A stretch of 64,000 nt of DNA from an uncultured cyanobacterium (GTDB lineage: Bacteria > Cyanobacteriota > Cyanobacteriia > Cyanobacteriales > CAWUOF01): assembly GCA_963744145.1 (NCBI GenBank), contig CAVUSO010000001.1, positions 1,934,831-1,998,830 of the forward strand, in the 5' to 3' direction. Positions 17,437-36,558 of the stretch are shown here, one piece after another. How positions within the stretch are numbered: position 1 is the first letter of the stretch; each line of letters starts with the position of its first letter. A program made the position numbers and the translations under genes. Below the pieces are notes generated by a model, which worked only from the letters and a program-made list of their open reading frames with translations, ran no database searches and had not been told where the DNA came from.

Positions 17437-17450
17437 GTGAAGCTAAAATT

Positions 17451-17774: not shown

Positions 17775-17894
17775 AATCATGAAAATCAAAGGTATTAAAC
17801 AGGGTGTAACAGCGGTAGATCGTGGCAACCCAAACGCGATCGCGCAATTTAGTCATAAAACTGAATTACCACAAAAATACAGCGGATGACCCGT

Positions 17895-18160: not shown

Positions 18161-18300
18161 AACTACCCCATCTTACATCACAGACAACACTGCTATACTT
18201 CATAAATAGGTCATACGCTAGATCTCATCCAGATTGAGAGTCTTTAAAATGTCACAAGGCACATCAAAGATAACGATGCTGGACTTTTAAGGTATTTTTT

Positions 18301-21300
18301 ATGAAAAAATTGCGCGATCGCTATTGGAAAATCGGTTATGGTAGTGATGAAGATAACCTAATCGTTGATTTTTATATCCCGGCTCTTGAATGTGCCCTCC
18401 AATACGATCGCAAAGCCGGATTTTTTAATAGTACCATACTCAGTCGCGTCGCCAGAGGATTAGGAGCATTATTAGCAAATCAAGGACGAATGCGCTTAAT
18501 TATGGGTTGTCAGTTTTCTCCTGAAGACTTACAAGCGGTTCAACAAGGTTACGCATTACGAGAAACCCTAACTCATCGACTAGATCAAGAACTTACTCCA
18601 CCTGTCAACTTTGCCCAGCTCAAACATTTTGAAATCCTCAGTTGGTTGATTCAAAATGAATATCTCGATATTCGCATTGCAATTCCCCTCAAACCTAATG
18701 GTAATCCTGAATCCTCAGAATTGGTATTAGATCCAAAGCATTTATTTCACGAAAAAGTAGGCATTATTTCCGATGTAAATGGCGATCGCCTAGCTTTTAA
18801 TGGTTCCAATAATGAATCAATCGGTGGATGGCAATCTAACCTAGAATCATTTCATGTATTTTTTTCCTGGGATGGTGGTAGCGATTTACAAAGAGTACAA
18901 CATGAATGCGATCGCTTTGAGCGTCTTTGGAATGATGAACTTCCCAATGTGCGAGTATTTGAAATTCCTACAGCAGTAAAACAAAAACTATTAAATTATA
19001 CCCCAAACCAAAAACCCGACTGGAATCCGCAAGCAGAATTTAATACCAGCCCCATCACTTATTTAGAAACAATAAATGAGTTCCAAATCTCTGAAGAAGA
19101 ACTACAAAAAGAACGAGAACAATTTACCCAACTTGCTAATATTCATCACCATCCTGGTTGTCTAGACTTCTCAGTTAAATCAATTCCCATCAAACCTTGG
19201 GCACATCAACTAAAAATCTTGCGACGGATAGCAGCAGAGTTTCCCCGTAATGCTTTAATTGCTGATGAAGTAGGTTTAGGTAAAACCATTGAAACCGGTT
19301 TAATATTGCGTTACTTGCTGCTCTCGAAAAAAGCAACGCGAGTGTTAATTTTAGTACCAGCTAGTGTACAACCTCAGTGGCAAGAAGAAATGCGGGAAAA
19401 ATTTAACTTGCACTTCTGGTCCTATGGCAAAAATGAACTGGTTGATCCGTACCAACAATCAGTCGCGATCGCCGGAAATCTTTGGAATCAGAAAAACCTG
19501 ATCCTTGCATCTAGTCATCTAGTCAGACGCAAAGAACGAATGCAAGAATTACTAAACTCTGAAGCATGGGATTTAATCGTTTTAGATGAAGCACATCACG
19601 CAAGAAGAAAAAGCCCTCAAAATCACAAAGATACTCCCAACCGTCTACTTGAACTAATGGAGCGTCTGAGAACAAATACTCAAGCTTTGCTACTCCTTTC
19701 TGCAACACCAATGCAAATTGATGCGATCGAAATGTTTGATTTAATCAAGTTACTTGGTTTAAAAGGTCATTGGGAATTTCCTGATAATTTTTGTCATTAT
19801 TTCGCCACTCTATCTGAATCACCTAATAAAGATATGCTCAACTTTTGGCAAACCATGTCTACAGATTATTTTGATCATGGTGGTCAGCCTTGTAGTAAAA
19901 TTCAGAAAGGATTAGAAACTAGCGATCGCCTGTTATTTTATCAACTTGAGGATATTTGGCGCAATGGTCAGAAAATAACTAATCCTCAGAAATATCTAGC
20001 CGATGATAATTTTATCAGTGCATCTCAAAGATTTCTGGCAACTAATACACCGATTAAAGACTTAATGTTTCGCCACACCCGCGATACATTGCGAGAATAT
20101 TTTAAACGTGGTTTATTAGCTCAAGATGTACCGATAAGAGAGGTATTTGATCATGCAATTGCTCTCGAAGCAAATCGCGAAGTTCATCTCTATATTGCTG
20201 TTAGTGATTACGTGCGACATTTTTACCGTCTCGCGCAAAAGGAAAACCGCAAAGCCCTGGGTTTTCTAATGACCCTATATCGTAAACGTCTCACCAGTTC
20301 TTTCTATGCGATCGAGAAATCATTACAACGTAGATTAGATTATTTACTTACTCAACAGGGTAGCTTATTAGGAGATGATGACTACAGCGATCTAGAAGAT
20401 GCCGATGATGCTATTATTGAAGGCTTAGAATCCTTCATGGAACCCATAGATCCAAAGGAAATTGAATATTTACAAGATTTATTGCATCAATTTGACAATA
20501 CAGGGGAAGATACCAAGCGATCAAAATTTATCAACAAATTAAGACAAGAATTCTTAGAGCGTGATAGTGCGATCATCTTTACCCAATATACCGATACAAT
20601 GGACTATTTGCGCGATATCTTAACTCAATTATATGGTTCATCAGTTGCCTGTTATTCAGGAAGGGGTGGAGAAATCAATTATGATGGTAAATGGCAAATT
20701 ATCCCCAAGGAAGAAATCAAAAGACGGTTTCGTGATGGGGAAATTAAAATCTTGCTATGTACCGAGTCAGCTAGTGAAGGGCTAAATTTACAAACTTGTG
20801 GAGTTTTATTTAATTATGATATGCCTTGGAATCCGATGCGAGTGGAGCAGCGGATCGGACGGATTGATCGGATTGGTCAAAAATTCTCTCAAGTCAGAAT
20901 CCATAATTTTTACTATGACGGAACAGTAGAAGCAAAAGTCTATCGTAAATTGCGCGATCGCATCCAAGCATTTACCACAGTAGTTGGTAATCTGCAACCC
21001 ATCCTCGCTCTTGTACCTACTTTTATTGAAAAAGCAGTAATGAGTGCCGATCCCTTAGAAGAAAATGTCTTGCTGTCGGAATTTGAGCAAACTTTGGATA
21101 TATCACCTTTACAACCTGCACTTAATGATGCTGTCGCAATGGATGTGGAAGCCGATCTTACTGAACTTCGTCAACCAATCCCATCATCTCCCTTTAATGC
21201 TGAAATAATCGAACAGGTTTTGACGCGATCGCGACTATTACAGAAAGCCGGAATTAGGTTTGAGAAGATCGCAGAAAAGCTGTGGAAATTACAATTAGAA

Positions 21301-21426
21301 GATCAATCTTATCAAGTTACCTTTTATGCCGATACTTTTGACGAACATCCATCTTTGCGATTAATGACTTTTGGTGATCCTATTTTTGAGCTCCTGTTGC
21401 ATAAACGTTTAGCGTCAGCAACCTGA
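18301..21426 (+). CDS. PLD-family nuclease domain fused to SNF2/DEAD-like helicase (defence-associated)
   Basis: HxKxxxxD motif (HEKVGIISD) at the N-terminus. Helicase motifs I (DEVGLGKTIE), II (VLDEAHHARR), III (SATPMQ) and C-terminal helicase block (LLCTESASEGLNLQ, QRIGRIDRIGQ). Confidence 0.8.
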   Translation: MKKLRDRYWKIGYGSDEDNLIVDFYIPALECALQYDRKAGFFNSTILSRVARGLGALLANQGRMRLIMGCQFSPEDLQAVQQGYALRETLTHRLDQELTPPVNFAQLKHFEILSWLIQNEYLDIRIAIPLKPNGNPESSELVLDPKHLFHEKVGIISDVNGDRLAFNGSNNESIGGWQSNLESFHVFFSWDGGSDLQRVQHECDRFERLWNDELPNVRVFEIPTAVKQKLLNYTPNQKPDWNPQAEFNTSPITYLETINEFQISEEELQKEREQFTQLANIHHHPGCLDFSVKSIPIKPWAHQLKILRRIAAEFPRNALIADEVGLGKTIETGLILRYLLLSKKATRVLILVPASVQPQWQEEMREKFNLHFWSYGKNELVDPYQQSVAIAGNLWNQKNLILASSHLVRRKERMQELLNSEAWDLIVLDEAHHARRKSPQNHKDTPNRLLELMERLRTNTQALLLLSATPMQIDAIEMFDLIKLLGLKGHWEFPDNFCHYFATLSESPNKDMLNFWQTMSTDYFDHGGQPCSKIQKGLETSDRLLFYQLEDIWRNGQKITNPQKYLADDNFISASQRFLATNTPIKDLMFRHTRDTLREYFKRGLLAQDVPIREVFDHAIALEANREVHLYIAVSDYVRHFYRLAQKENRKALGFLMTLYRKRLTSSFYAIEKSLQRRLDYLLTQQGSLLGDDDYSDLEDADDAIIEGLESFMEPIDPKEIEYLQDLLHQFDNTGEDTKRSKFINKLRQEFLERDSAIIFTQYTDTMDYLRDILTQLYGSSVACYSGRGGEINYDGKWQIIPKEEIKRRFRDGEIKILLCTESASEGLNLQTCGVLFNYDMPWNPMRVEQRIGRIDRIGQKFSQVRIHNFYYDGTVEAKVYRKLRDRIQAFTTVVGNLQPILALVPTFIEKAVMSADPLEENVLLSEFEQTLDISPLQPALNDAVAMDVEADLTELRQPIPSSPFNAEIIEQVLTRSRLLQKAGIRFEKIAEKLWKLQLEDQSYQVTFYADTFDEHPSLRLMTFGDPIFELLLHKRLASAT

Positions 21427-21512
21427 AACAGGGTGAGTAAAGCCCACCCTGATCGATCTATTCTGCTCCGACAATTGGTGCAAATCCTTGACGTTGAACA
21501 TTCTCAGTCATA
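21427..21512 (+). repeat. about 85 bp direct duplicate of the putA 3' end plus downstream hairpin (att-like remnant)
   Basis: Near-identical to 33553-33645. Minus-strand reading gives ...TENVQRQGFAPIVGAE*, identical to the PutA C-terminus. Contains hairpin cagggtgagtaaagcccaccctg. Confidence 0.7.
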
Positions 21513-21540
21513 GTTCGCGATCGTCTTAACTTGGGGGTCT

Positions 21541-22044
21541 TTGGGTTTAGATCCTAAACTGATGCAAGTGACCTATAAGCAACAGGAAATCACCTTCAGA
21601 CCCAAAGAATATGCTCTGCTCCAACTATTTCTGCAACATCCTCAGCGCATTTTTAGCCGCAATACCATTATCGATCAGCTTTGGTCGATCGACCAATCGC
21701 CAACGGAAGCAGCCGTAACAACTTTGATCAAAGACTTGCGTCGTCGGTTAAAAGCCGCAGGAATTACCGAAGAAGTGATTGAGACAGTTCATGGGTTGGG
21801 ATATCGACTTACAACAGCACCAACAGTTGAAAAGAGCAGTTCTCCGACTTCTTTGGGAAAATCTAGATTGCCTGGATGTGAATCTGAATCAAAAATCGGG
21901 GAACTACCGAAAGTTTCAGAGGATAGTTTAGTAGAGCGATTTAGAGTGTCCTTAAAGCAGAGATTAAGAGTCTTAGAGGAAATGGAAGTCGCGCTACACC
22001 ATCAACTCAGGAGATCAGTTCAAATTCTCTTGTGCTGGCAATAG
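21541..22044 (+). CDS. stand-alone OmpR/PhoB-type winged-helix DNA-binding domain protein (no receiver)
   Basis: trans_reg_C-like segment EITFRPKEYALLQLFLQHPQRIFSRNTIIDQLW...VTTLIKDLRRRL...VHGLGYRL. Start codon is a non-ATG in the track; the true start may be the MQVTYK Met. Confidence 0.55.
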   Translation: MGLDPKLMQVTYKQQEITFRPKEYALLQLFLQHPQRIFSRNTIIDQLWSIDQSPTEAAVTTLIKDLRRRLKAAGITEEVIETVHGLGYRLTTAPTVEKSSSPTSLGKSRLPGCESESKIGELPKVSEDSLVERFRVSLKQRLRVLEEMEVALHHQLRRSVQILLCWQ

Positions 22045-22385
22045 TCAGCGATGCTACATTTGCAAAAAGACTTCAGCAGGAAGCACCACGATGGGGACTG
22101 AGGCTGGAAGTCATCAGCGATCGTTCAACAGTGCAACATCGATTAACACAAACCACCCCAGAAGTAATTCTGCTGGCTCTAGATGGTGATGGGGCGGACA
22201 ATCCCTTGGCGCTATTGCAAACAATAAAGGCAGATTATCCAGCCATGCCGATTGTCATCCTGTCAGATCCTGAATCAATGCGACGAGCATTTGCCGTTGG
22301 AGCCAATGATGTGCTTGGAAAACCTGTGGTTGAAGCCGAGTTGGTGACAAGGATGATCAGCCGAATCAAGCAATTAGGCCAATAA
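22032..22385 (+). CDS. stand-alone receiver-like (CheY-like) domain, partly degenerate acid pocket
   Basis: LAIVSDA...ILLALDGDG...IVILSD...GANDVLGKP matches the receiver topology but the N-terminal DD pair is reduced to SD. GTG start. Confidence 0.45.
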   Translation: MLAIVSDATFAKRLQQEAPRWGLRLEVISDRSTVQHRLTQTTPEVILLALDGDGADNPLALLQTIKADYPAMPIVILSDPESMRRAFAVGANDVLGKPVVEAELVTRMISRIKQLGQ

Positions 22386-22392
22386 GCAGATT

Positions 22393-22773
22393 TTGCTCAT
22401 TGACCATGAGGCTTCTGTTCGAGAAGTTTTGCAGCTTTGCTTAAGCAGTGTTGATGGTTGGCAAATTATATCCGTTGCTTCTATCCAAGCCGGCTTAGAA
22501 AAGCTGTGCATTGAGCGTGTAGATGCTATTCTTCTAGATACAGAAAACTTAGAAACTGATGGAATTAGTTTTATTAAAAAACTTAAAAATGACCCATTTA
22601 CTCGATCGATTCCAGTTATCTTCATTACAGCTAAGGCAAAAAGCTTTTTGTCGCATCAACTGCAAGCATTGGGGATTGCGGGTGTGATGGCGAAACCATT
22701 TAATGCCAGGACTTTACCGATTCAATTGGCTGGAATGTTGAATTGGAGTCTGGGTTCTAAATTTGTTGATTGA
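22393..22773 (+). CDS. stand-alone response-regulator receiver domain
   Basis: ILLIDHEAS...AILLDTENLETDGISF...PVIFITAK...GVMAKPF. TTG start. Confidence 0.5.
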   Translation: MLIDHEASVREVLQLCLSSVDGWQIISVASIQAGLEKLCIERVDAILLDTENLETDGISFIKKLKNDPFTRSIPVIFITAKAKSFLSHQLQALGIAGVMAKPFNARTLPIQLAGMLNWSLGSKFVD

Positions 22774-22926: not shown

Positions 22927-23490
22927 TCAATGCTTTAAAATCACTTTGGCAGGAATCCCTATTGCAATTGAATTTGGCGGGATATCTTTGGTTACTACCG
23001 CACCAGCAGCAACAATAGAATTATCTCCAATTGTTACACCAGCTAAAATAGTTGCCCTAGATGCAATCCAAACATTATTACCAATAACAATTGGTTTATA
23101 TTCATGCTCTCTCGGATATTCTTTAACAGGCAAAGAGAAGTTGATCAGATTTTTTAAGCTTAAATATTCTGTGGGCAATTGCTCATTTTCCACCGCAGCT
23201 ATTTCATGCACTTTTAATCGACCAGTTTCCAGAATTACATAAGAAGAAATACTCACATATTGACCGATATCAATTCCACCTCCACCACCCATAACTACAC
23301 CATAATTAATAGATGTATAATCACCAATTTTAATTTTTTCAGGAGAGTACATTCTTGGCCACGCATATACTAATACTGATTTACCTAACTCCTTAACCAG
23401 AAGAGATAAAAATATATATCTGATATAGAGCAAGATGACATCGGTACTATTAAATATCCCTAGGGCTATTTTTTTGAATATGTTACTCAT
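22927..23490 (-). CDS. hexapeptide-repeat (left-handed beta-helix) acyl/acetyltransferase
   Basis: [48 protein letters not shown] hexapeptide repeats (WcaF/MAT-like). Confidence 0.75.
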
Positions 23491-23541
23491 AATCCATTTA
23501 ATTGCTAATGTTCAAAGTTCTCAGACTTGCTTAAATCTTTT

Positions 23542-24279
23542 TCAAAGTCTCTTGGCTAAAATAGTTACATATTTGAGATTTTCACCATTAAAAAAACTCC
23601 GATGATTATAAACATGAGTATCATGCAGTTTTAAAGTGCCTTCTGAGATCGCCTGACGGTAAAAGCGGATAAATTCAGGAGGATTACTTTGATTTTCGTA
23701 GCTAGTCTGGGCAATATTAAACATTACCCATGCCCCGGCTTGAATAAGATTCAATGCCAACTTAAAAGCATCAACAGGGATGTGATCGGAACTCAGAGCA
23801 GAACAACAGACTAAACAATTTAATTGTTGCTCTTTAATCCGGTTTTTGGTTGATTCTGATAACTGAGTTAAATCTTCAACGATATAATCTTGGTAAACCC
23901 CTGGACATTCTCTATTCGCGGCTACTGCTGCTTCAGGAACAATATCTATTCCGACAATAGCAGTAATACCCAATTTGGCTAATGCTTTACCAAATAAACC
24001 ACTACCCGCACCAAGTTCTAATATTTTGAGTTTGTCAATTGGTAAGCCTGTTTCTTTTACTTTTTCCACTAACAGAGATGACATGATTTCAGGCGATCGA
24101 TATTTGAGTATTTCAATAGCAATATATTCATACAACCCTGGAATACTATATACATCGCCATAGTCGTGTAATCTTAAGCGACGCTCTTGGCCATTTTGAG
24201 TAAGGAAAAAATACTCTTCATTAATAGATAAATTTCCTACATGATCGGGCAATCTGATTTGAAAATTAGTTTGAGTCAT
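23542..24279 (-). CDS. class I SAM-dependent methyltransferase
   Basis: Motif I ILELGAGSGLFGKALAKLG. Acidic residue after beta2 (GIDIVPEA). Confidence 0.7.
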   Translation of the reverse strand: MTQTNFQIRLPDHVGNLSINEEYFFLTQNGQERRLRLHDYGDVYSIPGLYEYIAIEILKYRSPEIMSSLLVEKVKETGLPIDKLKILELGAGSGLFGKALAKLGITAIVGIDIVPEAAVAANRECPGVYQDYIVEDLTQLSESTKNRIKEQQLNCLVCCSALSSDHIPVDAFKLALNLIQAGAWVMFNIAQTSYENQSNPPEFIRFYRQAISEGTLKLHDTHVYNHRSFFNGENLKYVTILAKRL

Positions 24280-24357
24280 AATATCAATTAGCTAAATTTT
24301 TGCTAGAGCTGAAGCAGGAAAAATCAATTGTCACCCAAGTAAAGAGTCGATTAATTA

Positions 24358-25050
24358 TTATCCTGTCGGAATTGCTAACGCTTTACCGTTATCGCTAGCA
24401 CCAATCTGTAAGATAAAAGGAATAGCTCTAATTACCCAATCTTGATCAGAAATGTAATTAGCTGCTTTTTCCTTACCATAGATAGTTTCTAAGGTATCAG
24501 TGTGAATTGTTCCGGGCCAAAGGGAAACTGTAGCCATACCAGATGGTAATTCTTGAGCAAAGGCTTTAGTTAATCCTTCAATAGCCCATTTACTAGCGCA
24601 GTAAGGAGTAGCATTAGCAGTGGTATAACGTCCCCAACCAGCACTAAAGTTAATAATTATTCCCCTATTTTGCTCCACCATTGCAGGGACAAAATGGCGA
24701 ATTACGTTAGCTACGCCTTTGATATTAATATCAATAACGCGATCGAATACTTCACTTTTAATTTTCCAGAGGGGCAAAAGTTCGTGAACGATACCTGCAT
24801 TATTTATGATTAAGTCAGGAGGTTCATATTGGGAGAGTATGGTTTTACTCCAAGCTTCTACTTGAGCTTCATTGGCAACATCTACAGAGGTAAAGTGATG
24901 ATGGGGCTGGGGGAATTGCTGTTGCAGATTTGCGATCGCTTCATGGTTAGTAGCACAACCTATTATAGTATGTCCTAACTGGATCAACTGTTCAGTCATT
25001 ACTCTACCTAAACCCCGACTTACGCCAGTAATTAGAATGATTTTGGTCAT
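24358..25050 (-). CDS. short-chain dehydrogenase/reductase (SDR) family oxidoreductase
   Basis: TGxxxGxG (ILITGVSRGLGRVM), NNAG, catalytic YxxxK (YCASKWAIEGL). Confidence 0.8.
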   Translation of the reverse strand: MTKIILITGVSRGLGRVMTEQLIQLGHTIIGCATNHEAIANLQQQFPQPHHHFTSVDVANEAQVEAWSKTILSQYEPPDLIINNAGIVHELLPLWKIKSEVFDRVIDINIKGVANVIRHFVPAMVEQNRGIIINFSAGWGRYTTANATPYCASKWAIEGLTKAFAQELPSGMATVSLWPGTIHTDTLETIYGKEKAANYISDQDWVIRAIPFILQIGASDNGKALAIPTG

Positions 25051-25059
25051 AATTATAGA

Positions 25060-26022
25060 TTAACCCACAGATAACAAGCTTCTGTTCGCAACACAGTAGT
25101 TGCTATACCAATAACTCATTGGCTTTGACCAAAAATATTGGGCATAACCTTCGCTCACAGCTTCACTACTTTCTCGGTACAGAAGAGAAGGAGAGTTATC
25201 AACCACATAAAATGTATGTCCTTGCCGATCTTGGTAGATCGGATTTTCTATTTTGGTGGCATGAGTACCTTGAATTGCTCTGCCGGTATCGGCTGCTGCA
25301 TCGATAATCCAGCCCGTAGATTTCATGGAATTAAGCATTTGCAAAGTAACAATTGGTGCATCAGATTCAGCTATTTCTACCGTATTAATAAAAATATCAT
25401 AATTTTGAAACTCTTGCTTGAGTAAATCCACATTACTTCTTCTACGCAACAATGGTTCGATTCCTTTACTAGCCAAATATTTTAATACACCATAAGCTAC
25501 ATTACCAGAACCAAATACTGCTACTTGGTCTTTTTCTATAATCCCGCCTCGCAACATAATTGCCTGCATAACTGAGGCATAACCAGCCAAAATACTATTT
25601 TTGTAGGTTATGTCTCTAGGAATATTCAGCTTTTCGGATTTTCCTTGATAAACGCGAATAGAAATTCGATTTGTCACATCAAAAAGTTGGAGCTTTTTCG
25701 GTTTAGCACAATGTTCTGTAAAGTGCTTTCCTGATGCACCAAACGGATGAATCCAACCAGCTAATCCTTGGTTTTCTCTAAAGTATTGATAGTCTTGGGG
25801 TTGAGGTACTTTAATACAGTAAATTACATCTGCCCAAGCAAAGAGACTTTCTCTGGAATAACCGCCAGCTTCTCCATACGCCCAATCGGGAATACCTAAA
25901 TTTTCTCCATAACCTTGTTCAAATCTACGTTCGTCTTCTGTGCTACAATAGGGTAAATCTTTCGGTAATAAACCGACTCTTTTTTCATTAGGGAAACTTG
26001 GCTTGATATAGGCAATCTTCAT
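25060..26022 (-). CDS. AlaDH/PNT-family NAD(P)-dependent enzyme (alanine dehydrogenase / saccharopine dehydrogenase / N5-(1-carboxyethyl)ornithine synthase-like)
   Basis: N-terminal KIAYIKPSFPNEKRVGLLP resembles the AlaDH/PNT N-terminal domain. Rossmann motif VAVFGSGNVAYG. Confidence 0.5.
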   Translation of the reverse strand: MKIAYIKPSFPNEKRVGLLPKDLPYCSTEDERRFEQGYGENLGIPDWAYGEAGGYSRESLFAWADVIYCIKVPQPQDYQYFRENQGLAGWIHPFGASGKHFTEHCAKPKKLQLFDVTNRISIRVYQGKSEKLNIPRDITYKNSILAGYASVMQAIMLRGGIIEKDQVAVFGSGNVAYGVLKYLASKGIEPLLRRRSNVDLLKQEFQNYDIFINTVEIAESDAPIVTLQMLNSMKSTGWIIDAAADTGRAIQGTHATKIENPIYQDRQGHTFYVVDNSPSLLYRESSEAVSEGYAQYFWSKPMSYWYSNYCVANRSLLSVG

Positions 26023-26039
26023 TTGATTTTCCTCAACTA

Positions 26040-27149
26040 TTAAAATTCTTGGTGTTGAAAATTTCTTCTGCCGACAAAGAAGTCCCAGTCTACATAACCT
26101 GAATTGAGCTTTCTGTCTCCTGTTGAGGGGTCAAAAGCTGTTCTTCCATGAAGGATTCTAAAGTTTTGGAAGAGTAGACAGTTATGTGGCTTCAGACGAA
26201 ACTGATATTGATAATCTGGTTTTTTGAGATAGCGGAAGAAAGTATTAAAAGCTTGGTAGAAATCTTCTAATTGCTCGAAGGGTAAATGAGGTCTACAGTT
26301 TCTTTTGCTAAATCGCACTGTACTAACATTACCATCTCGATCGCATTCCAGGATGGGAGAAGTGTTACAAAAACGATATTGATGATGGCGATCGACTAAC
26401 CAAAATTGTACGGGAGTTTCTCCTAATAGTTGAAAGTAATTTGGATAATCTTGGCGAAAGTCTTGAGCCACTCGAAATCCATCTACCAGAGTAGATTCAC
26501 CCCCGATTGCTTGGTGTTCTAAACAATAGAGAAACTGGACGAGATGATGTCCTCCCCAGTAACTGAGATCGTTATGGAGGGGTAAACTACATCCATCACG
26601 AGGAGGTAAAGATTCTTTCGTTTTGGCTTGGGGTTGTAGAGCAAATATTGTCCCGTAATCAACGTTATGAATTGGCCCAATAGATGAAATAAAAGATTCT
26701 AATTCGTCAGGTGGGATGTTTTCTAAAACGACGAATCCGAGACTAAATAATTGATCAATCCAAGAATTATCATTAATCGCCTGAACATCATAGCTTTTGG
26801 GCGATGGTAATTCTAGTTGTGTCCGATCCCATAAAATATAGCTCTCAGACTTTACTTGTGGTTGAGGATCGTAAGCATTCTTTAGTAACCAATCAACAGA
26901 GAATATACTACGATAGGCAGGAGTTTCATCCCAGTCAATGATTAAGGTTTCCCCATTGAACTCCACTGATAAAGGCTGCGGTTGTTCTGGGCGATCGCTA
27001 ATATTAGGATCGGAGAGTTGTTGATAGGGTGCTGGATACCGACAACTCGGACAATTTTCCCGTAACCAGATGTAATGAAAGCGTTTATCACCAACAGTAA
27101 TAAACTTTTCTGAGGTCATAGTTGTGGTTTTTTCTTTTTGAAGTTTCAT
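26040..27149 (-). CDS. Fe(II)/2-oxoglutarate dioxygenase, gamma-butyrobetaine hydroxylase-like (TauD/BBOX family with DUF971-like N-terminal domain)
   Basis: N-terminal FHYIWLRENCPSC (BBOX/DUF971-like). HxD...H facial triad region HNDLSYWGGHH...ILHGR. Paralog of 27166..28287. Probable real start at about 27119 (MTSEKF). Confidence 0.65.
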   Translation of the reverse strand: MKLQKEKTTTMTSEKFITVGDKRFHYIWLRENCPSCRYPAPYQQLSDPNISDRPEQPQPLSVEFNGETLIIDWDETPAYRSIFSVDWLLKNAYDPQPQVKSESYILWDRTQLELPSPKSYDVQAINDNSWIDQLFSLGFVVLENIPPDELESFISSIGPIHNVDYGTIFALQPQAKTKESLPPRDGCSLPLHNDLSYWGGHHLVQFLYCLEHQAIGGESTLVDGFRVAQDFRQDYPNYFQLLGETPVQFWLVDRHHQYRFCNTSPILECDRDGNVSTVRFSKRNCRPHLPFEQLEDFYQAFNTFFRYLKKPDYQYQFRLKPHNCLLFQNFRILHGRTAFDPSTGDRKLNSGYVDWDFFVGRRNFQHQEF

Positions 27150-27165
27150 ATTACTCTAGGATTTT

Positions 27166-28287
27166 TTACCGACTAAGAATAGATAAGCGACTGAGTAATT
27201 CTGTCCGTTCGATAAACGTACTTTGCATAAAGCGTTCTCCGGTATATTCGGTACGCCCATGTAGCACCCGATGGTTATCAAAAATCAGCAGATCTCCTGA
27301 ATTGAACTTGATCTTAACTCTATATTCATTGCAGTTACACAGTTCCATAAAGGTGCGGTATGCCTCGTAATAAGGCTTTATTATCTCTGAAGGGAAGTTA
27401 AAGGGCTGAATAGCACGCGAAGAAAAGCGAATTAACTTTACTTCGCCCAAACAATTGAGTTCGATAATCGCGCCTTCTCCCATTAAATCCGCATCAGTGT
27501 GTTGGAAGCGAAATTGTACAGGTAAAGTTGAGAGCAGTTTAAATTTCTCTGGGGCTTGTTGGCGTAATACTTCTGCTATTTTAAAACCATCAATCAGACT
27601 ATTCTCTCCTCCAGTAGCACCAGTGATTAAGTAGTGAAAGAGTAAATAAGCAGGTGGAGAAGCAAAATAAGATAAATCGGTATGGGGTAAAATCCTTAAA
27701 TTAGTAAACGCATCGGTTTCAGGATTCGCTACATTTTTAACATTATTACACTTACCCCAATAGGTTTCACGCACACAACCTAGCTGAGATGCTATTTCTA
27801 AGATAGTACCTGGCTCGGTAGGAACATTTTGTAGTACAGCAATTCCCTCATCACGTACAGCTAATAACCAGTCTTTCAGTTGGGCTTCATTCTGCCAAAT
27901 ATCGCGATAGTCAGCTTTGGTTATTGAAGTTGCTTTTTCTGAACCCCATAATTTAGGTTGCCAAGATTTGGACTGTGTTTTATTAGAGTAGGAATGTTCG
28001 CGTAACCAGAGCGAATCGAATTTGCTAACATGACTTTCATTAGCCCAGACAATTTCGATTTGTTGTTCGTGATTGATGCTGACTTGATCGGGATAGGGTT
28101 CAAGCGGAAGAGTCAAAGGATCGATGGTACGCTGACAGTTGACACGGGGGGTTGCTGGGCAATTGTCTCGTAGCCAAACATAATGAAATTGACTGTGAAA
28201 TCCATCTTCCCATTCAACCTGAAGCAAGTCTTTTTCAGTTTTCAGTTTGAGGACAGATCTATCTGAATTAGTTGCTACTGTTAACAT
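27166..28287 (-). CDS. Fe(II)/2-oxoglutarate dioxygenase, gamma-butyrobetaine hydroxylase-like (paralog)
   Basis: FHYVWLRDNCP, HTDLSYFASPP, RVLHGRTEY. Same architecture as 26040..27149. Confidence 0.65.
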   Translation of the reverse strand: MLTVATNSDRSVLKLKTEKDLLQVEWEDGFHSQFHYVWLRDNCPATPRVNCQRTIDPLTLPLEPYPDQVSINHEQQIEIVWANESHVSKFDSLWLREHSYSNKTQSKSWQPKLWGSEKATSITKADYRDIWQNEAQLKDWLLAVRDEGIAVLQNVPTEPGTILEIASQLGCVRETYWGKCNNVKNVANPETDAFTNLRILPHTDLSYFASPPAYLLFHYLITGATGGENSLIDGFKIAEVLRQQAPEKFKLLSTLPVQFRFQHTDADLMGEGAIIELNCLGEVKLIRFSSRAIQPFNFPSEIIKPYYEAYRTFMELCNCNEYRVKIKFNSGDLLIFDNHRVLHGRTEYTGERFMQSTFIERTELLSRLSILSR

Positions 28288-29281
28288 CGGTTTCTCCTGA
28301 TTGTGTCATTAATGTTTTAACGATTTCTTGCCAAGCTAGATCGCAAATTCGACTACGACTATCTTGGGTATTGGTGGCAATGTGAGGAAAAATTAAGCAA
28401 TTATCAAGCTTATGCAGAGGATCATTAACAGGTAGGGGTTCTGGTTCGGTGACATCTAACAGTGCCATCGCGATTAAACCCTTTTCTAAGGCTATATATA
28501 GGTGATCTTGATTACAAATTGCTCCTCTGGCAATATTGATAAAAATTCCCGATCGCTTCATCTTCTCAAATGCTTTTGTGTCAAACATATTTTGGCTAGA
28601 GTTGTTGAGAGAACAGCAGACGATCACAGCATCTGATTCAGTAAGCAGTTGCTCAAAACTGACATATTCAAGTGAATACTGATGTTCTAATTCTGGCTTC
28701 TGATGTGGAGAAAAATAGAGGATACGAGAATTAAATCCCACCAGACGTTTAACGATCGCACTGCCAATCTTACCCATACCAACGATCCCAATTGTCAGTT
28801 GTGATAAAGCAAACCCATCTAAATTCCACAAATAATATGGCGTTACATTATTATCACTTAGTTGGAGATTTTTGTCAATACGTCTAATCCCAATTAATAA
28901 AAGAGCGATCGCGTAATCGGCAATAGCATCTGTGGTTACTCCGGGTACATTAGCAACCTGAACACCATGTTTCTGACAAGCATTGAGATCGACATTTTCG
29001 ATCCCATTACTCATCACTGAAACTATTTTAAGAGTCTCTCCCGCAGCTTGAATTAAGGTGGCATCAATTCGATCTTCATAGGTGCATAAAATAGCATCAT
29101 AGTTGTTTTGAGTAACTTTGCTCAGTAGTTCTTGATAAGTCATCTGACGTTTTTCGGTAAAACAATCAATAGCAAAGTAATCGGGAAATTTTTCTCTTGA
29201 TTGCTGAGGAATCAGAGCAGTTATTAGAATTCGATAATGCACAATATTGGTTTTGGTTTTTACCTGTTCTAAGGGTTTCAT
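28268..29281 (-). CDS. D-isomer-specific 2-hydroxyacid dehydrogenase family (glyoxylate/hydroxypyruvate reductase-like)
   Basis: NAD-binding GIVGMGKIGSAIVKRL. Catalytic region ...FINIARG...HIATNT. Confidence 0.75.
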   Translation of the reverse strand: MKPLEQVKTKTNIVHYRILITALIPQQSREKFPDYFAIDCFTEKRQMTYQELLSKVTQNNYDAILCTYEDRIDATLIQAAGETLKIVSVMSNGIENVDLNACQKHGVQVANVPGVTTDAIADYAIALLLIGIRRIDKNLQLSDNNVTPYYLWNLDGFALSQLTIGIVGMGKIGSAIVKRLVGFNSRILYFSPHQKPELEHQYSLEYVSFEQLLTESDAVIVCCSLNNSSQNMFDTKAFEKMKRSGIFINIARGAICNQDHLYIALEKGLIAMALLDVTEPEPLPVNDPLHKLDNCLIFPHIATNTQDSRSRICDLAWQEIVKTLMTQSGETDVNSSN

Positions 29282-29300
29282 TTGCTGATGTTAGCAATGT

Positions 29301-29879
29301 TTATTTAACTGGGATAAATTGATATTGAGGTTTTGGTTGAGCAAAAATTTGTTTGACTATAGGGACAAAAAAATCTAGGTCGAAAGAGTCATAATTGGGA
29401 TCGAAGCTGTTTTGATCATATTTTTCACAGAAATCTATTGTGGCTTGATAATAGGGAGAATCTCGATATTTTTCTCGGACATCGCGATCGCCTCCCAGAT
29501 AGTGGGCGCAATAATACTTTTGAAACAAGGAGTGATGTTTAACTATCCAATAAGTCTGTTCTGACACATAGGGCTTAAGAATAGCAGCAGCCATTTCTCC
29601 ATGATTGTAAGGAGCTAAGATATCGCCAATATCGTGAAGTAAAGCAGCAGCAATTGTCTCGACGTTTTCACCTTCCCGAGCAGCTCTGGTAGCTGCTTGC
29701 AGAGAATGTTCATAACGAGTTACTTGGTAGCCATCAAAGGAAGTTTTCAATGGTTCTAAAGCTTTTAAAATCCGTTCTGGAACATCTTGTGTTGCTTCAG
29801 CGGCTAAGGCATATAGAAGCACAAAGTCTTCTTTTGTTCCATGTTCCATAGCAGTAAAATTAACTTGGTTCATGCTCAT
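29301..29879 (-). CDS. HD-domain protein (PhnZ/TmpB/MIOX-like mixed-valent diiron oxygenase candidate, or phosphohydrolase)
   Basis: HD motif AALLHDIGD with upstream His (YEHSLQAATRA) and downstream HH (VKHHSLF). About 190 aa, the size of PhnZ-like proteins. Confidence 0.5.
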   Translation of the reverse strand: MSMNQVNFTAMEHGTKEDFVLLYALAAEATQDVPERILKALEPLKTSFDGYQVTRYEHSLQAATRAAREGENVETIAAALLHDIGDILAPYNHGEMAAAILKPYVSEQTYWIVKHHSLFQKYYCAHYLGGDRDVREKYRDSPYYQATIDFCEKYDQNSFDPNYDSFDLDFFVPIVKQIFAQPKPQYQFIPVK

Positions 29880-31273
29880 ACCTCCTGAAAAAAAGGTGTT
29901 AAATTATTCGCTGGAGTTTCGACAAAAGGTAACTTTTGATTCTCGAAGAAATCTTCAACCTTTCCTAACTCACGAATAACTTCAATTTTTCCTTTGCTAT
30001 AAGCTATTTCCGCCGGATAATTATGGAGAGCAAAATTAGTTACGGAGTGATTGAAACCATAAGCTCCACAATTATAAATTACTAGGCGATCGCCTATTTC
30101 TACATCTTGAGGTACTTCCACATCTTCTACCATAATGTCTAAAGGTGTAGGTAGTTTTCCGGCGAGAGTTACTGTTTCGGTATTGAATTTCTCTTTACCC
30201 AAAACATCCATAAATTTGCTGGCTTTTTTCATAGACATAGATATTCTTAACAGTTGATGAATGCCACCATCCAAAATTAAAAACTTTTTGCCTTGGGATT
30301 CTTTGATGTCAAGAATTTCTGCAACATAAGAACCAGATTCGCAGACTAAATAACGACCTAATTCAAAAAAATAGTCGTATCGATAGGGATTATTATCACT
30401 AATATTCTGCATTTGCTTGCCAAATTCTTCAAGATTAAATTCGGCATCAATAGCATTGTAAGGAACACCCATTCCCCCACCGAAATCGACTATAGATATC
30501 AGATAGCCTTGATCTCGCAGACGATTAGCAATTCTAATAGTATTCTGACAAGAAGCAACCAATAGTTGGTAATCAAGAATATTACTTTCGGTAAAAATAT
30601 GAATACCTTTGAGGTTAATATTTGGCAGAGATACAATCTCCCCGATCGCTTCTGAAACTATCTGTTCATCAATCCCAAATTTACTAGCACTTTGGCAAAT
30701 TAATTGGATCGGAGCAGTTGATTCTGTATTCAGAGTACAACTACTACTTCCTTGACTTACTTCACAACTATTACTGGTGCGATATAAGGGATTAATTCTT
30801 ACCAGGATATCTTGAATGATTCCATATTTTGCTGCCAAAGAATTTAAACGACGTGCTTCATTGATAGATTCAACAACAATTAAACGAATGCCTTGTTTCA
30901 AGGCAAATGATAATTCTCGGTTGGTTTTCCCTGGACTTGTAAATACAATCTGTTGGGGAGAAAAACCAGCTTTAATAGCTGCAACTAATTCGCCAATAGA
31001 ACTAATATCTGCTGAAGCTCCCAGCTTAGCTAAATGATGACAAATAGACAAATTACTATTTGCCTTGAGAGTGTAATGAACTCGAAAATGCTCTGGCAAA
31101 AAGGTTGTCAAACTATTAAATTGACGTTCAATTTTGTCAAAGTCATAAAAATATAGTGGAGTTTCATATTGCCCAACTAATCTTTCAATTTTTTGGTGCT
31201 GCCGAGATGTAGATTGTATAAATTCAGTCATCATATTGATTGTTGTTGTAACATTGACCAGTGAACTGAACAT
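29876..31273 (-). CDS. PLP-dependent decarboxylase, Orn/DAP/Arg decarboxylase family 2 (fold-type III, LysA-like)
   Basis: PLP-lysine motif YTLKANSNLSICHHLAKLG. C-terminal beta-barrel motifs (CESGS, GAYGF). Confidence 0.75.
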   Translation of the reverse strand: MFSSLVNVTTTINMMTEFIQSTSRQHQKIERLVGQYETPLYFYDFDKIERQFNSLTTFLPEHFRVHYTLKANSNLSICHHLAKLGASADISSIGELVAAIKAGFSPQQIVFTSPGKTNRELSFALKQGIRLIVVESINEARRLNSLAAKYGIIQDILVRINPLYRTSNSCEVSQGSSSCTLNTESTAPIQLICQSASKFGIDEQIVSEAIGEIVSLPNINLKGIHIFTESNILDYQLLVASCQNTIRIANRLRDQGYLISIVDFGGGMGVPYNAIDAEFNLEEFGKQMQNISDNNPYRYDYFFELGRYLVCESGSYVAEILDIKESQGKKFLILDGGIHQLLRISMSMKKASKFMDVLGKEKFNTETVTLAGKLPTPLDIMVEDVEVPQDVEIGDRLVIYNCGAYGFNHSVTNFALHNYPAEIAYSKGKIEVIRELGKVEDFFENQKLPFVETPANNLTPFFQEV

Positions 31274-31421
31274 TTTGGACCAGGTGGTTTCAACCGCAGG
31301 CAGCTACAAAAACGAAATTTGCCTGTGCAGGTGACAAAACCCTTGATTGGTTAGTCAAGACTGATAATAGAGGAAAAATATAAGAAATATATGAGAAGGA
31401 CAAGATTTCCAATTCTCTTAA

Positions 31422-33215
31422 TCATTCCGCTTCCTGCTGAACGGGTAGCCTGAAATAAAAGGTGCTTCCTGCTCCCAACCCACTCTCTACCCAAATCTGT
31501 CCTTGGTGCTGTTGCACAATACTCTTGCAAATGGCAAGTCCTAACCCCGTTCCTCGCTTCTTTTGGGAATCCTGCACATCCACTTGCTGAAATCGACCAA
31601 AGATGGTTTCGAGTTTATCCGCAGGAATCCCAAGTCCCTGATCCTGAATGGAGAAGAGAATATAGGGTAGTGGGGTATGGATGTTTTCCCTGACTTTCTC
31701 GCTCTCCCAATCCTTCGCTTCGACAACCTCTGCTTTTACCCACACTGTACTATTAGCCGGAGAAAACTTGATGGCATTGCTCAACAGGTTGGTTAATGTT
31801 TGCACGATCGCATCTGGTGCAGCCCATACCGAGACGGTCAGCGGTGTTCAATCCAGATGGATTTTGGCAGCATCGGCGATCGGCTGTATGGTTTCAACTC
31901 CTTGCTGGATCAGATCCGTCACCTCACAAGCTGCCATCTCCAGCGCGGTTGTGCGAGACTCTAACCGCTCCAGATCGAGGATGTGATTAACTAATCGCAC
32001 CAGTCGCTCGCTATTATTGAGGGCGATCGAAATCAGATGGTTAAACTTTTCAGAATTGTTGTGATAGAGCCCTGATTCCAGGATGCCGAGAGAACCGTGA
32101 ATAGCAGTCAGTGGGGTTCGGAGTTCATGACTAACAATGGAGATAAATTCATCTTTCATCTGCTCGATCACATGGCGATCGCTAATGTCTTGAATTTGAG
32201 CAATAAAGTAGATCGGTTCTCCCTGGTGATCTCGGACAAGTGATAAATTCAACAGAGACCAAACCACATAACCTTGTTGATGGAAATACCGCTTCTGTAC
32301 TTGGTAGGTTTGAATTTCACCTGCCAGGACTCTTTGGATTTGCTCTAAATTAATGACCAGATCATCAGGATGGGTAATTGCTTGAAAGGTTTTGGTCAAC
32401 AATTCGGCTTGACTGTAGCCCAGAATTTCTGAAAGCGATCGATTGACGCGAATCAATTGACCTTCAAGTGCTATTAATGCAATACCAATGGGAGCATCTT
32501 CAAAAGCACTGCGGAACCGTTCTTCAGTACGTTGGAGTTCCTGGGTGCGTGCCGCGATCTGGTCCTCTAGCTCTCTGGAATAATCGGTTAAAATTCGCTC
32601 GGCTTCTCGTCGTTTCGTGATGTCTTGAAAGGCATTAATAGCATAGAGAACCTGCTCTACCGGATAAAGTTGATTGGTTCCTGCTTGGTAGATTTGATCG
32701 GCTTGAGACTGTCGTAAAGGCGACAAGTTGAAAATATTTCCTCCTCCTAAAATGGTTTCACCCACTTGATTGAGGAGAATTTGATTTCCAGTGGCATCAA
32801 AGACGCTGATTCCGACTGGAACATTACTCAGGAGCTTCTCAAATCGTCGTTCGCTCTTTTGCAGCGATCAGAACGACGTTTCAATCTGATGCGCCATCCG
32901 TTGAAAAGCGTTCGTTAGACCTGCGACTTCACTGACGACCGAGTTTTCGACTGGATCATCTAACTGTCCGGTGGCGATCGCCACTGCTGCTTGCTGCAAG
33001 CGATAAATCGGTCTGGCAATCCAACCAGCACTCAACATTCCTGTCCCCGCAGCGATGAGTAGAGTCAGCCCACACAAGAGCCATGTTCGCTGGGTATTAG
33101 CCTGAATTTTTGCCATGAAATCGGATTCGGGAATGATCACCACCACCAGCCAATCCAACCCGTATTGATCTTGGTAAGGAGTTACCTGGACAAACTGCCG
33201 CTGGTGGTTACTCAT
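31422..33215 (-). pseudogene. sensor histidine kinase (TM-HAMP-PAS-HisKA-HATPase) interrupted by two in-frame TGA codons
   Basis: Three consecutive same-frame ORFs (33215-32868 HAMP, 32765-31848 PAS+HisKA with SHELRTPLTAI, 31805-31422 HATPase with NLLSNAIKF...GLGL). The first two each end in TGA. No frameshift between them. Confidence 0.65.
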
Positions 33216-33363
33216 CAGCGTCAGTTGTTGGGTTATTTGCAGGGTGCTTCTCCTGTCTCGTTGCTAAAGAAGATAGATTGGAGGGAGGGATTCAGGATGA
33301 TTTATTGCCAAAATTGCTGTTGCAGTTGCTTAAAGTCTTTAAATTGCCACTCCCACCCCTAAA

Positions 33364-33548
33364 GCAGGGCTGTTTCATGCTCGATTCTCAGATAATCGAC
33401 CTAACCCCCCAACCCTCTTCCCTGCGAGGGAAGGGGGAGTAATTCTTATGGTTAAATTGATCGGATTTAATCAGAGTCATTCTGCTCCCCTTTCCTAAAA
33501 GGAAAGGGGTTGGGGGAGAGGTGTTCTGGTAGCATGAAACAGCCCTGC
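33364..33548. repeat. about 185 bp palindromic MITE-like element with 18 bp perfect terminal inverted repeats and internal G/C-rich hairpins
   Basis: gcagggctgtttcatgct ... agcatgaaacagccctgc termini. Internal ccccaaccctcttccctgcgagggaaggggg and ctcccctttcctaaaaggaaaggggttggggg hairpins. Confidence 0.6.
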
Positions 33549-33552
33549 TAAA

Positions 33553-33645
33553 ACAGGGTGAGTAAAGCCAACCCCGATCGATCTATTCTGCTCCGACAAT
33601 TGGTGCAAATCCTTGACGTTGAACATTCTCTGTTACTGTTCGCGG
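33553..33645 (+). repeat. putA 3' end / downstream segment duplicated at 21427-21512
   Basis: About 85 bp near-identical direct repeat. This copy is part of the intact putA gene. Confidence 0.7.
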
Positions 33646-36558
33646 TTCTAAGAATTGCAACAAATAATCAGGACCGCCAGCTTTAGAACCAACTCCCGAT
33701 AACTTAAATCCACCAAAAGGTTGTCGAGATACGATCGCACCAGTAATCCCACGATTGATATATAGATTACCGACTTCAAATTCAGTTTGGGCTTGTTGAA
33801 TATGAGAAGGTGTGCGAGAATATAAACCACCAGTTAAAGCAAAGTTAGTGCTATTCGCGATCGCGATCGCTTCAGCAAAGTCTTTAGCTTTAATTACTGC
33901 TAAAACCGGTCCAAAAATTTCTTCCTGAGCAATCTTAGCGGTGGGTGACACATTGGTAAAAACTACCGGTCCAATAAAATAACCTGAATCTGGTGCAGGT
34001 ATTTCTACAGCTAACTCTGCTTCTTGACGACCGATTTCAATATATTCACGAATTTTTTGATGAGCATTAGCATCAATTACCGGACCGACTTGAGTGCTAG
34101 GTAACTCAGCAGCACCAATATTTAGCGATCGGGTAGCTTCTACTAAACGTTGCACAAAAGTATCATAGATTGATTCTAACACAATCACCCGTGAACAAGC
34201 GGAACATTTCTGACCACTATAACCAAATGCGGACTGAACTACTCCTGCAACTGCTTGATCTAAATCAGCACTTTCATCAACAATTATTCCATTCTTACCA
34301 CCCATTTCTGCAATTACTCGTTTCAGATGTTTCTGTCCTGGTTGTAAAATTGCTGCATCTGCATAGATCCGACAACCAACTTCTTGAGAACCAGTAAAAG
34401 TAATCATCTGTACATCAGGATGCTTGACCATATAAGCACCTACACTTGATCCTTTTCCCGGTACAAATTGAAATACTCCCGGAGGAATTCCTGCTGCTAC
34501 TAAAATATCAGCGATTTGAGCAGCAATCACTGAGGAAACTTCTGCTGGTTTGAGTAAGGTACAATTTCCTGCTACTAAAGAAGCTACTGTCATTCCCGTC
34601 GGAATTGCTAAGGGGAAATTCCAAGGAGAGATAATTAAAGAAATCCCACGGGGTTGATAGGTATAGCGATTAGTTTCTCCAGCAACATCATAATTATATC
34701 CTTGTTCTAACCGTTCCATTTCTGCTGCATAATAACGACAGAAATCGATCGCTTCGGAAACTTCCCCATCACATTCACGTAGAGGTTTACCAACTTCTAA
34801 CATCATCCAAGCACATAATTGTGCCCGTCTGGTTTCCATTATATCTCCAGCTTTTCGCAATATTTCCGCTCGTTTTTGGACGGGAGTTTTGCGCCAATTA
34901 TGAAATGCTTTTTTAGCAGCAGTAATTGCAGTTTCCGCTTGTTCGATGGAAATTAATCCAAGTTTACCAATCACTTCACTAGGATGAGAAGGATTAATTG
35001 AATCCACTGTTTGGGCGGTATTTTGGTATTCACCATCAATTAAAGGTAAATAGGTTTTCCCCAATTGCAGACGGATTTCTTGCAAAGCTTGGTGAGCTTT
35101 TTTCCGATTATTTACATCAGCATAATCTGTATCCGCAGCATTAGGAAATACTTGATGTTTTTCGTAAACTGCGTTAGGATCTTTAACAACTGGTGGTGCT
35201 AGTAATTCATCGATCGGACGTTCTTCCAAACTTTGACGCAAAAATGAGCTATTAGCCGTATTTTCTAATAAACGACGAATTAAATAACCCATTCCTGGCA
35301 GTAAATTACCATAAGGAGCATACACCCGCACCCGATGACCACAATCTACTAATCCTTTAGCAATTTTATCACCCATCCCGTATAAAACTTGCATTTCAAA
35401 TCGACGACGGGGGATATTTAGAGTTTCGGCGATCGCCATTGCTTTAGCTTGCGATCGGACATTATGACTAGCGATCGCTCCATAAAGATACTGATGATTT
35501 TCTAATAAAATCTGAGTGAGTTTCTCATAATTAGCATCAGTAGCAACTTTATCATTAAAAACTGGTTGATGCCAATCTTTTTGAGCAGATTTAATGGTTT
35601 CTTGATCCCAATATGCACCTTTAACTAAACGTACAGTTACCGGATTTCCGCGTTCTTTAGCCCAAACAATTAAATCTTGTAAATCTTTTTCTGTATCGCG
35701 CAAATATCCTTGGAGAGTCATTCCAATATCAGTGCGATCGCGAAATTCTGGTTCGAGCAGGATTTGTTTAAGAGTAGCTAGAGTTAAGTCTTTATAGCAA
35801 TATTGTTCCATATCGAAGTGAACTGCTGCTCCGACTGCTTGAGCATGACGTAATAGAATCCGGATGCGATCGCTAACTTTTGCTTGACTTCCCTGATCAT
35901 TGAGGGGATCGAATTGGGAATAAAAGGCAGTTAACTTGACAGATACTTGAACTTGTGGTATAGATTCTCCATCTGCTTGATCAATTACTGGTACAGATGA
36001 CCATTTTTTGGCAGCTTCGGCAAGTTGGGTCATCAAATCTAAGTAGCGATCGAGATAGGATTGTGCTTCCACCTCAGTAATGACAGCTTCCCCTAACAAA
36101 TCAATAGAGAAAGCCATTTTTTCTTTGCGGAGACGTTCAACAGTTTTAATCACAGCGGAAATATTTTCCCCAGCAATATACTTATGTGCTAAGGTTTCAA
36201 CTGCGGTAGCCACAGTCGTAGCAGCGACTTGACCAGGAATAGAATCAGCATGAGCAAAATTGAGTATACCTTTCAAAGCCGAAGGAAGTTCAACTTCTGC
36301 CGTCGTTAGATATTCTTGGAGATGACGGGCAATTTCAGCTTTACTACGCAAAGCAGGTAAACAATCAATAAAACGAAATAGTTGGACCCTTAGTCCTGGA
36401 TTACTCATGGCCCAAGCGAGTAATTTATCATCCCAGCGCATTTGTTCTTGTAATTGTCCGAACAGGGAGCGTTTTTTCTCCTGAGTAGCGGATAAAAGTT
36501 CTTGAGCGATTACTTGAGTTTTAGCTTCGTAGGTGCTATTTGATACTTGTACGACCAC
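33583..36558 (-). CDS. putA: bifunctional proline dehydrogenase / delta-1-pyrroline-5-carboxylate dehydrogenase (PutA, no DNA-binding domain)
   Basis: N-terminal proline dehydrogenase domain. C-terminal aldehyde dehydrogenase motifs EMGGKNGIIVDESADLD and FGYSGQKCSACSR. 991 aa. Confidence 0.85.
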   Translation of the reverse strand: MVVQVSNSTYEAKTQVIAQELLSATQEKKRSLFGQLQEQMRWDDKLLAWAMSNPGLRVQLFRFIDCLPALRSKAEIARHLQEYLTTAEVELPSALKGILNFAHADSIPGQVAATTVATAVETLAHKYIAGENISAVIKTVERLRKEKMAFSIDLLGEAVITEVEAQSYLDRYLDLMTQLAEAAKKWSSVPVIDQADGESIPQVQVSVKLTAFYSQFDPLNDQGSQAKVSDRIRILLRHAQAVGAAVHFDMEQYCYKDLTLATLKQILLEPEFRDRTDIGMTLQGYLRDTEKDLQDLIVWAKERGNPVTVRLVKGAYWDQETIKSAQKDWHQPVFNDKVATDANYEKLTQILLENHQYLYGAIASHNVRSQAKAMAIAETLNIPRRRFEMQVLYGMGDKIAKGLVDCGHRVRVYAPYGNLLPGMGYLIRRLLENTANSSFLRQSLEERPIDELLAPPVVKDPNAVYEKHQVFPNAADTDYADVNNRKKAHQALQEIRLQLGKTYLPLIDGEYQNTAQTVDSINPSHPSEVIGKLGLISIEQAETAITAAKKAFHNWRKTPVQKRAEILRKAGDIMETRRAQLCAWMMLEVGKPLRECDGEVSEAIDFCRYYAAEMERLEQGYNYDVAGETNRYTYQPRGISLIISPWNFPLAIPTGMTVASLVAGNCTLLKPAEVSSVIAAQIADILVAAGIPPGVFQFVPGKGSSVGAYMVKHPDVQMITFTGSQEVGCRIYADAAILQPGQKHLKRVIAEMGGKNGIIVDESADLDQAVAGVVQSAFGYSGQKCSACSRVIVLESIYDTFVQRLVEATRSLNIGAAELPSTQVGPVIDANAHQKIREYIEIGRQEAELAVEIPAPDSGYFIGPVVFTNVSPTAKIAQEEIFGPVLAVIKAKDFAEAIAIANSTNFALTGGLYSRTPSHIQQAQTEFEVGNLYINRGITGAIVSRQPFGGFKLSGVGSKAGGPDYLLQFLEPRTVTENVQRQGFAPIVGAE

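Follow-up and report, generated by a model that had tools for sequence, protein, structure and literature searches.

The minus-strand locus at 33340-31422 of the window (the whole 64-kb stretch of DNA that we analysed) is, with a probability that we put at roughly 93%, the non-functional relic of a membrane sensor histidine kinase of the single-copy type, in a HIP1-rich filamentous cyanobacterium. The copy carries at least six lesions. These disable the kinase: codons 1-95 and the promoter are lost, three sense codons have become stops (CAA->TAA, CGA->TGA, and TGG->TGA), a deletion of 574 nt shifts the frame within the sensor domain, and another of 123 nt lies in PAS1. A full-length kinase product can no longer be made, and the three ORFs that remain are mechanical leftovers of the gene. 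The identification of the locus as a sensor histidine kinase pseudogene, made in an earlier note on this DNA, is upheld by clear homology (E = 0) to proteins of 960-966 aa and by the disabling lesions themselves.

That note had described three colinear ORFs in one frame, split only by two TGA codons. The sequence and a six-frame ORF list confirm this description: from 33215 to 31422 the minus strand holds one frame, interrupted by TGA 32870-32868 and TGA 31850-31848, and the peptides that flank the two stops are those quoted before, ..QIETSF*SLQKSERRFEKLL.. and ..AAKIHLD*TPLTVSVWAAPDAIVQTLTNLLSNAIKF.. The ORFs and the domain segments that they carry are as follows.

33215..32868, minus strand: ORF 1, 115 aa.
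32765..31848, minus strand: ORF 2, 305 aa.
31805..31422, minus strand: ORF 3, 127 aa.
32871..33215, minus strand: part of ORF 1 with the end of the Cache domain, the second transmembrane helix (TM2) and HAMP (ORF list, Pfam, alignment).
31851..32867, minus strand: PAS1 (truncated), PAS2 (intact-looking) and HisKA, with the H-box SHELRTPL (Pfam, alignment).
31422..31847, minus strand: HATPase_c segment with N-box, G-boxes and the native stop (Pfam, alignment).

When the stops are masked, Pfam finds on the concatenated translation HAMP at residues 63-112 (2.8e-09), PAS at 232-344 (5.5e-15), HisKA at 353-420 (2.5e-16), and HATPase_c at 467-593 (6.2e-27). An intact 960-aa homolog aligns by tblastn to 33245-31428 in one alignment across both stops (78% identity, E = 0). 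Because this single alignment spans both stops, the colinearity of the three ORFs is real and goes beyond chance. The H, N, G1, and G2 boxes of the remnant are still recognisable (SHELRTPL, NLLSNAIKF, DQGLG, and GTGLGLAI), and the native stop, TGA 31424-31422, lies at the terminus common to the homologs. The segment that had been called TM plus HAMP does contain HAMP and TM2, but its ORF begins at an internal Met: in the alignment to intact homologs, ATG 33215 falls within ..QQLTLMSNH.. and is not the kinase start. HisKA and HATPase_c are parted by a TGA, and the upstream part is interrupted by a TGA and a TAA, so no uninterrupted kinase ORF exists. The remnant also lacks TM1, most of dCache, and a start codon of its own, and with them the sensor input of a functional class I kinase.

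The extent of the damage becomes apparent from the relatives. A database search returned six proteins (P0001-P0006, 960-966 aa), all contiguous across both TGA sites, from sources that include a Planktothrix tepida plasmid, Microseira wollei, and metagenomes. They share 75-79% amino acid identity with the window kinase by BLASTP and about 79-84% in a MAFFT alignment; at the nucleotide level, the homolog-encoding loci are 82-91% identical to the window copy. The intact kinase is a protein of ~960 aa with the architecture TM1-dCache_1-TM2-HAMP-PAS-PAS-HisKA-HATPase_c. The P. tepida protein is named 'DgcE' in its source annotation, and GGDEF is absent from its precomputed Pfam hits. We know of no tested function for any member of this dCache/HAMP/PAS kinase subfamily, P0001-P0006 being uncharacterised.

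The window copy was compared with intact homologs in five assemblies besides its own (L009, L011, L012, L014, and L015), and the DNA alignments covered six homologous loci, these five and L010. At locus L011, the decarboxylase, HD, and 2-hydroxyacid dehydrogenase genes downstream of the intact kinase match those of the window, at 90% nucleotide identity. A scan of genome contigs with P0001 gave distant kinases only (25-47% identity) and no orthologs. In the corresponding scan of metagenome contigs, L053 was the one relevant locus, and it too is a decayed copy; the 49 other matches were distant. The same kinase family has been broken independently in at least three other assemblies, mostly through loss of the dCache sensor region.

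L010, ~12450: disrupted kinase relative with a +1 insertion and frameshift.
L053, 1461-2147: disrupted kinase relative with two large deletions.
L069, 6211-8906: disrupted kinase relative in which codons 113-280 are missing.

Alignment of the window copy to its homologs corrects the earlier picture of two nonsense mutations with no indels, since a third stop, two internal deletions, and a 5' truncation are present as well. The 5' boundary and the deletion junctions are identical against all six homologous loci. Read along the minus strand, the features are these.

33341..33547, no strand: filler of 207 nt, unrelated to the homologs, in place of the kinase 5' end and promoter.
33245..33340, minus strand: remnant of the dCache N-terminus, codons 96-127 (blastn against L011 607-702, 90.6%, and against L009, L010, L012, L014, and L015).
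33302..33304, minus strand: third nonsense codon, TAA, where the homologs have CAA, Gln (DNA alignment).
33244..33246, minus strand: junction of the 574-nt deletion, L011 nt 703-1276 (about codons 128-318) being missing.
32868..32870, minus strand: TGA number 1, where four of five homologs have CGA (Arg) and one has CAA (Gln).
32651..32652, minus strand: junction of the 123-nt in-frame deletion, between 32652 and 32651, L011 nt 1870-1992 being missing.
31848..31850, minus strand: TGA number 2, where all five homologs have TGG (Trp) at the DNA level.

Homology starts at 33340, which corresponds to codon 96; nothing remains of the first 285 nt (codons 1-95) with the start codon and TM1, or of the promoter. 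The segment 33340-33245 lies in a frame that differs from that of the main ORFs and translates as FKQLQQQFWQ*IILNPSLQSIFFSNETGEA; around its TAA (33304-33302) the window reads TGGCAATAAATC, whereas L009 and L011 read TGGCAACAAATC. The 574-nt deletion, with 1 base of microhomology at its junction, joins codon 127 to codon 319 at 33245, which shifts the frame and removes most of dCache. The 123-nt deletion takes 41 residues out of PAS1 (alignment columns 522-562), and PAS1 is therefore barely detected by Pfam. Both TGAs are single C:G>T:A transitions in the codon alignment (CGA->TGA and TGG->TGA), and the guess that orthologs would carry TGG or CGA at these sites proved right, with CGA in four of five at the first and TGG in five of five at the second. 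The missing pieces of the kinase were sought elsewhere in the 64-kb window, and none was found.

The filler at 33341-33547 may be the remnant of a MITE. It has a perfect inverted repeat of 19 bp (33363-33381 / 33531-33549) and, at 33413-33437, a GC-rich hairpin of the short-repeat type that is common in cyanobacteria. No consensus promoter-like site was found on the minus strand at the kinase, and a terminator-like hairpin follows PutA, the gene next to the remnant.

Could the kinase be intact in the organism, with the stops and deletions being errors of the reference? Two observations lean this way. TGA number 1 sits in a CGATCG methylation motif, and methylation motifs can give systematic miscalls on some platforms. 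In addition, the sole difference between the reference and an independent assembly, at 31847, directly adjoins TGA number 2 and hints at some heterogeneity. That assembly, the k-mer-based Logan assembly of public run ERR11571142, supplies a 5346-nt contig that corresponds to window 33605-28260 and differs from it by 1 mismatch over that length; each of the three stops is there, as are the two deletion junctions. The lesions are thus real in the reads. The artefact alternative raised in the earlier note is weakened accordingly, although the Logan contig may share the read set of the reference, so that it excludes an assembler error but not a mutation specific to the culture. Moreover, six separate lesions of three kinds fall within 2 kb, whereas no damage is seen in the adjacent 4.3 kb of genes, which end where their orthologs end, and the window has 68 intact GCGATCGC sites; therefore, CGATCG is not systematically miscalled. 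Programmed recoding is a different proposal, in which the TGAs are decoded (as selenocysteine, as Trp or Arg, or by readthrough) to give a functional TM2-HAMP-PAS-HisKA-HATPase protein. It could draw on the three ORFs in one frame with recognisable H, N, G1, and G2 boxes, and on the alignment of TGA number 2 with Trp, which TGA encodes in genetic code 4. Nevertheless, the two TGAs align with unlike residues (Arg/Gln at one, Trp at the other) and never with Cys. The fold of the 80 nt 3' of each TGA is no more stable than that of shuffled sequences (z = 0.39 and 1.80), which answers the earlier suggestion to look for a SECIS-like hairpin: there is none after either codon. No tRNA genes were found in the 64-kb window. 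TGA terminates 5 of 33 long ORFs there; the adjacent decarboxylase ends at a TGA with a C-terminus that matches its ortholog, and the kinase too ends at a conserved TGA. These ortholog-matching termini bear out the previous view that TGA is a genuine stop and speak against genome-wide recoding of the code 4 or code 25 kind. A readthrough product would in any case still be without TM1, the sensor domain, 41 PAS1 residues, and a promoter. Since the Logan contig reproduces the lesions, no SECIS-like fold follows the TGAs, and TGA is a normal terminator, both proposals are very unlikely, and for recoding we regard the probability as close to nil.

It is also highly improbable, in our judgement, that the fragments are kept as separate functional small proteins, for example as a PAS-HisKA piece or as a free HATPase acting in trans or as an inhibitor. 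All three ORFs were predicted as genes both for the NCBI record and for the Logan contig, and the substitution pattern of the fragments does not yet look neutral. Against this, non-elevated dN/dS is equally explained by recent inactivation. No database homolog is split at the TGA positions, and the close relatives are all contiguous there; orthologs that end at these positions as separate genes, which would have told against a pseudogene, were absent among the close homologs. The GTG codons at which ORFs 2 and 3 begin are internal and are not conserved as starts, that of ORF 3 lying inside the N-box region, and no promoter-like site was found for the fragments.

How old is the decay? Pairwise dN/dS is 0.25-0.29 for the window copy and 0.17-0.29 among intact homologs. 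Private nonsynonymous and synonymous changes number 34 and 41 in the window copy, compared with 31 and 32 and with 34 and 39 in two intact relatives (Fisher p = 0.77). Neither dN/dS nor private substitutions gave a signal of relaxed selection, measured against nearest relatives that are distant (dS about 0.3). Because the ratio of nonsynonymous to synonymous changes matches that of intact relatives, most of the divergence accrued under constraint and the inactivation is recent on the scale of dS ~0.3; the point mutations thus appear to be recent relative to the nearest relatives. We infer both the order of the lesion events and the absence of expression. The description of the locus as a very young pseudogene is defensible for the point mutations, which come without a rise in dN/dS, but the gene is structurally well decayed, and three nonsense mutations are somewhat more than would be expected under very recent inactivation. 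The dS between the kinase and its L011 counterpart is 0.33, whereas the genes of the adjacent cluster have values two to three times lower (0.11-0.18), a gap that suggests a mosaic history.

The nature of the mutations was considered as well. TGA number 1 arose in a CGATCG site, the first C of which became T. In Synechocystis this C carries a 5-methyl group, and methyltransferases that act on CGATCG occur widely among HIP1-rich cyanobacteria (PMC6105098, PMC4390886). It is plausible that TGA number 1 came from deamination of 5-methylcytosine. A deaminase or hypermutation source of the three nonsense codons was dropped, as the window lineage has no excess of G:C>A:T transitions (37 of 110, versus 45 of 96 and 18 of 102 in relatives). 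At 31847, the position directly beside TGA number 2, the plus strand reads T in the reference and C in the Logan contig, so that the codon right after the stop is ACA in one and GCA in the other. This difference may reflect heterogeneity of the culture or a second, nearly identical strain.

Directly after the kinase stop lies a conserved sequence that is shared with the relatives.

31367..31421, minus strand: conserved sequence of ~50-55 nt directly after the kinase stop, with its core at 31396-31373.
Sites of the same motif at other loci: L009 3246; L010 12938, 16480, and 18222; L011 3277; L012 12924 and 15032.
Sites at further loci: L014 10937 and 15619; L015 6887; L053 2119.

The core of the motif is TCTCATATATTTCTTATATTTTTC, an 11-bp direct repeat, and the motif can also be written TCTCATATATTTCWTATATTTTTC. 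It occurs once in the window, where 0 occurrences are expected, and it follows nearly all of the kinase homologs examined. It also precedes other, unrelated biosynthetic cassettes in L010, L012, and L014. The motif is operator- or promoter-like, and a putative operator for the OmpR-type regulator described below is a reasonable guess. An Rfam scan of 31000-33700 returned a match at chance level only (isrN, E = 0.74) and none for the motif. The cassettes downstream of the kinase homologs vary by genome and include radical SAM/EgtD/EgtB, PhyH, cupin/SDR, and Asp decarboxylase/TauD combinations.

The kinase is not the only decayed regulatory gene in this part of the window. A second relic lies 9 kb from it, and between the two is an enzyme cluster.

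21517..22393, plus strand: decayed REC-Trans_reg_C-Hpt-REC response regulator gene, recognised by homology to the intact 612-aa form in L015.
22927-31273, minus strand: nine-gene enzyme cluster, syntenic in L011.

The regulator relic has lost its 5' 374 nt and carries deletions of 191 nt and 397 nt. Beside it are an intact REC gene (22393-22773) and the position of one neighbouring REC gene that has been lost. In L015, the intact 612-aa regulator is located directly upstream of the kinase homolog P0004, and the regulator may have been the cognate partner of the dead kinase. We offer this partnership as a hypothesis because a regulator homolog adjoins kinase homologs in L015 and the window only. 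The two relics flank the cluster, which is intact. Its nine genes encode an Orn/DAP/Arg-type (PLP) decarboxylase, an HD protein, a 2-hydroxyacid dehydrogenase, a GBBH-like/TauD oxygenase, a second TauD oxygenase, an AlaDH/PNT-like dehydrogenase, an SDR, a methyltransferase, and a hexapeptide acyltransferase. The decarboxylase, the HD protein, the 2-hydroxyacid dehydrogenase, and the two TauD-type oxygenases are intact and co-terminal with their L011 orthologs, at 90% nucleotide identity. In L010, the same cluster is fragmented, with the decarboxylase, HD, and TauD genes split.

A direct repeat of 97 nt with 92.8% identity (21423-21519 and 33548-33644) brackets the relics and the cluster in a 12-kb block. 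The repeat consists of the last 62 nt of putA and 35 nt downstream of it, and the arrangement resembles what the integration of an element at a gene's 3' end would leave behind. No integrase was found in the 12-kb block, and the GC profile across it showed no clear island signal. For an empty-site comparison we turned to the PutA relatives L067 and L068, whose flanks are not syntenic with the window. One could imagine that the kinase, the regulator, and the 11-bp repeat motif form a portable regulatory module that travels with varied small-molecule cassettes among filamentous cyanobacteria, with both regulators decayed and the motif and enzymes intact in the 12-kb block; we consider this conceivable but unlikely. 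If it were true, the block would capture one moment in the loss of regulation that follows horizontal acquisition, and the cluster would be unregulated or rewired.

Directly beside the 12-kb block, on the plus strand, is an anti-phage defence system of the Hma type (7580-21426).

7580-10819, plus strand: HmaC AAA+ ATPase (6e-103).
11279-12582, plus strand: two PDC-S03 candidate genes, between the Hma genes.
14500-17436, plus strand: HmaB DUF1156 adenine methylase (3e-78).
18301-21426, plus strand: HmaA-like SNF2/PLD helicase.

Elsewhere in the window, two VWA-domain ORFs on the minus strand (60436-61899 and 61712-62971) overlap by 188 nt as mechanically called. Either a frameshift or a pair of tandem paralogs whose upstream start was called wrongly could account for this.

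Why do these findings matter? The gene callers applied to the Logan contig give separate HAMP, PAS/HisKA, and HATPase proteins. In annotation, the three ORFs should become a single entry, marked as a pseudogene and extended to 33340. The locus is also an example of why a gene that seems to be interrupted by in-frame stops only needs to be checked against full-length homologs before it is called a young pseudogene. Finally, a decayed sensor and its probable partner beside an intact, biosynthetic-looking cluster, together with the separate breaks of this kinase family in several other assemblies, bear on the loss of regulation after gene transfer.

How does the window kinase compare with known systems? 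It resembles class I kinases of the dCache_1-HAMP-PAS-HisKA-HATPase_c type (PF02743, PF00672, PF00989, PF00512, PF02518) in that the H-, N-, G1-, and G2-boxes and TM2 are kept. Unlike those kinases, it has no TM1, is missing most of dCache and 41 PAS1 residues, and contains three stops. With P0001-P0006 it shares the conserved downstream motif, and in L011 also the same downstream genes. Its sole likeness to selenoprotein and other UGA-recoding genes is the in-frame TGA; unlike selenoprotein genes, it shows no Cys/Sec alignment and no SECIS-like hairpin, and TGA is an ordinary stop. Bacterial pseudogenes arise by nonsense mutation, deletion, and truncation, and the window copy is typical of them in its premature stops, its frameshifting and in-frame deletions, its 5' truncation, and its intact neighbours. 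Compared with such pseudogenes, the only mild oddity is the presence of three nonsense codons with no measurable rise in dN/dS. The locus is what genome decay in bacteria ordinarily produces, and it leaves current understanding unchallenged.
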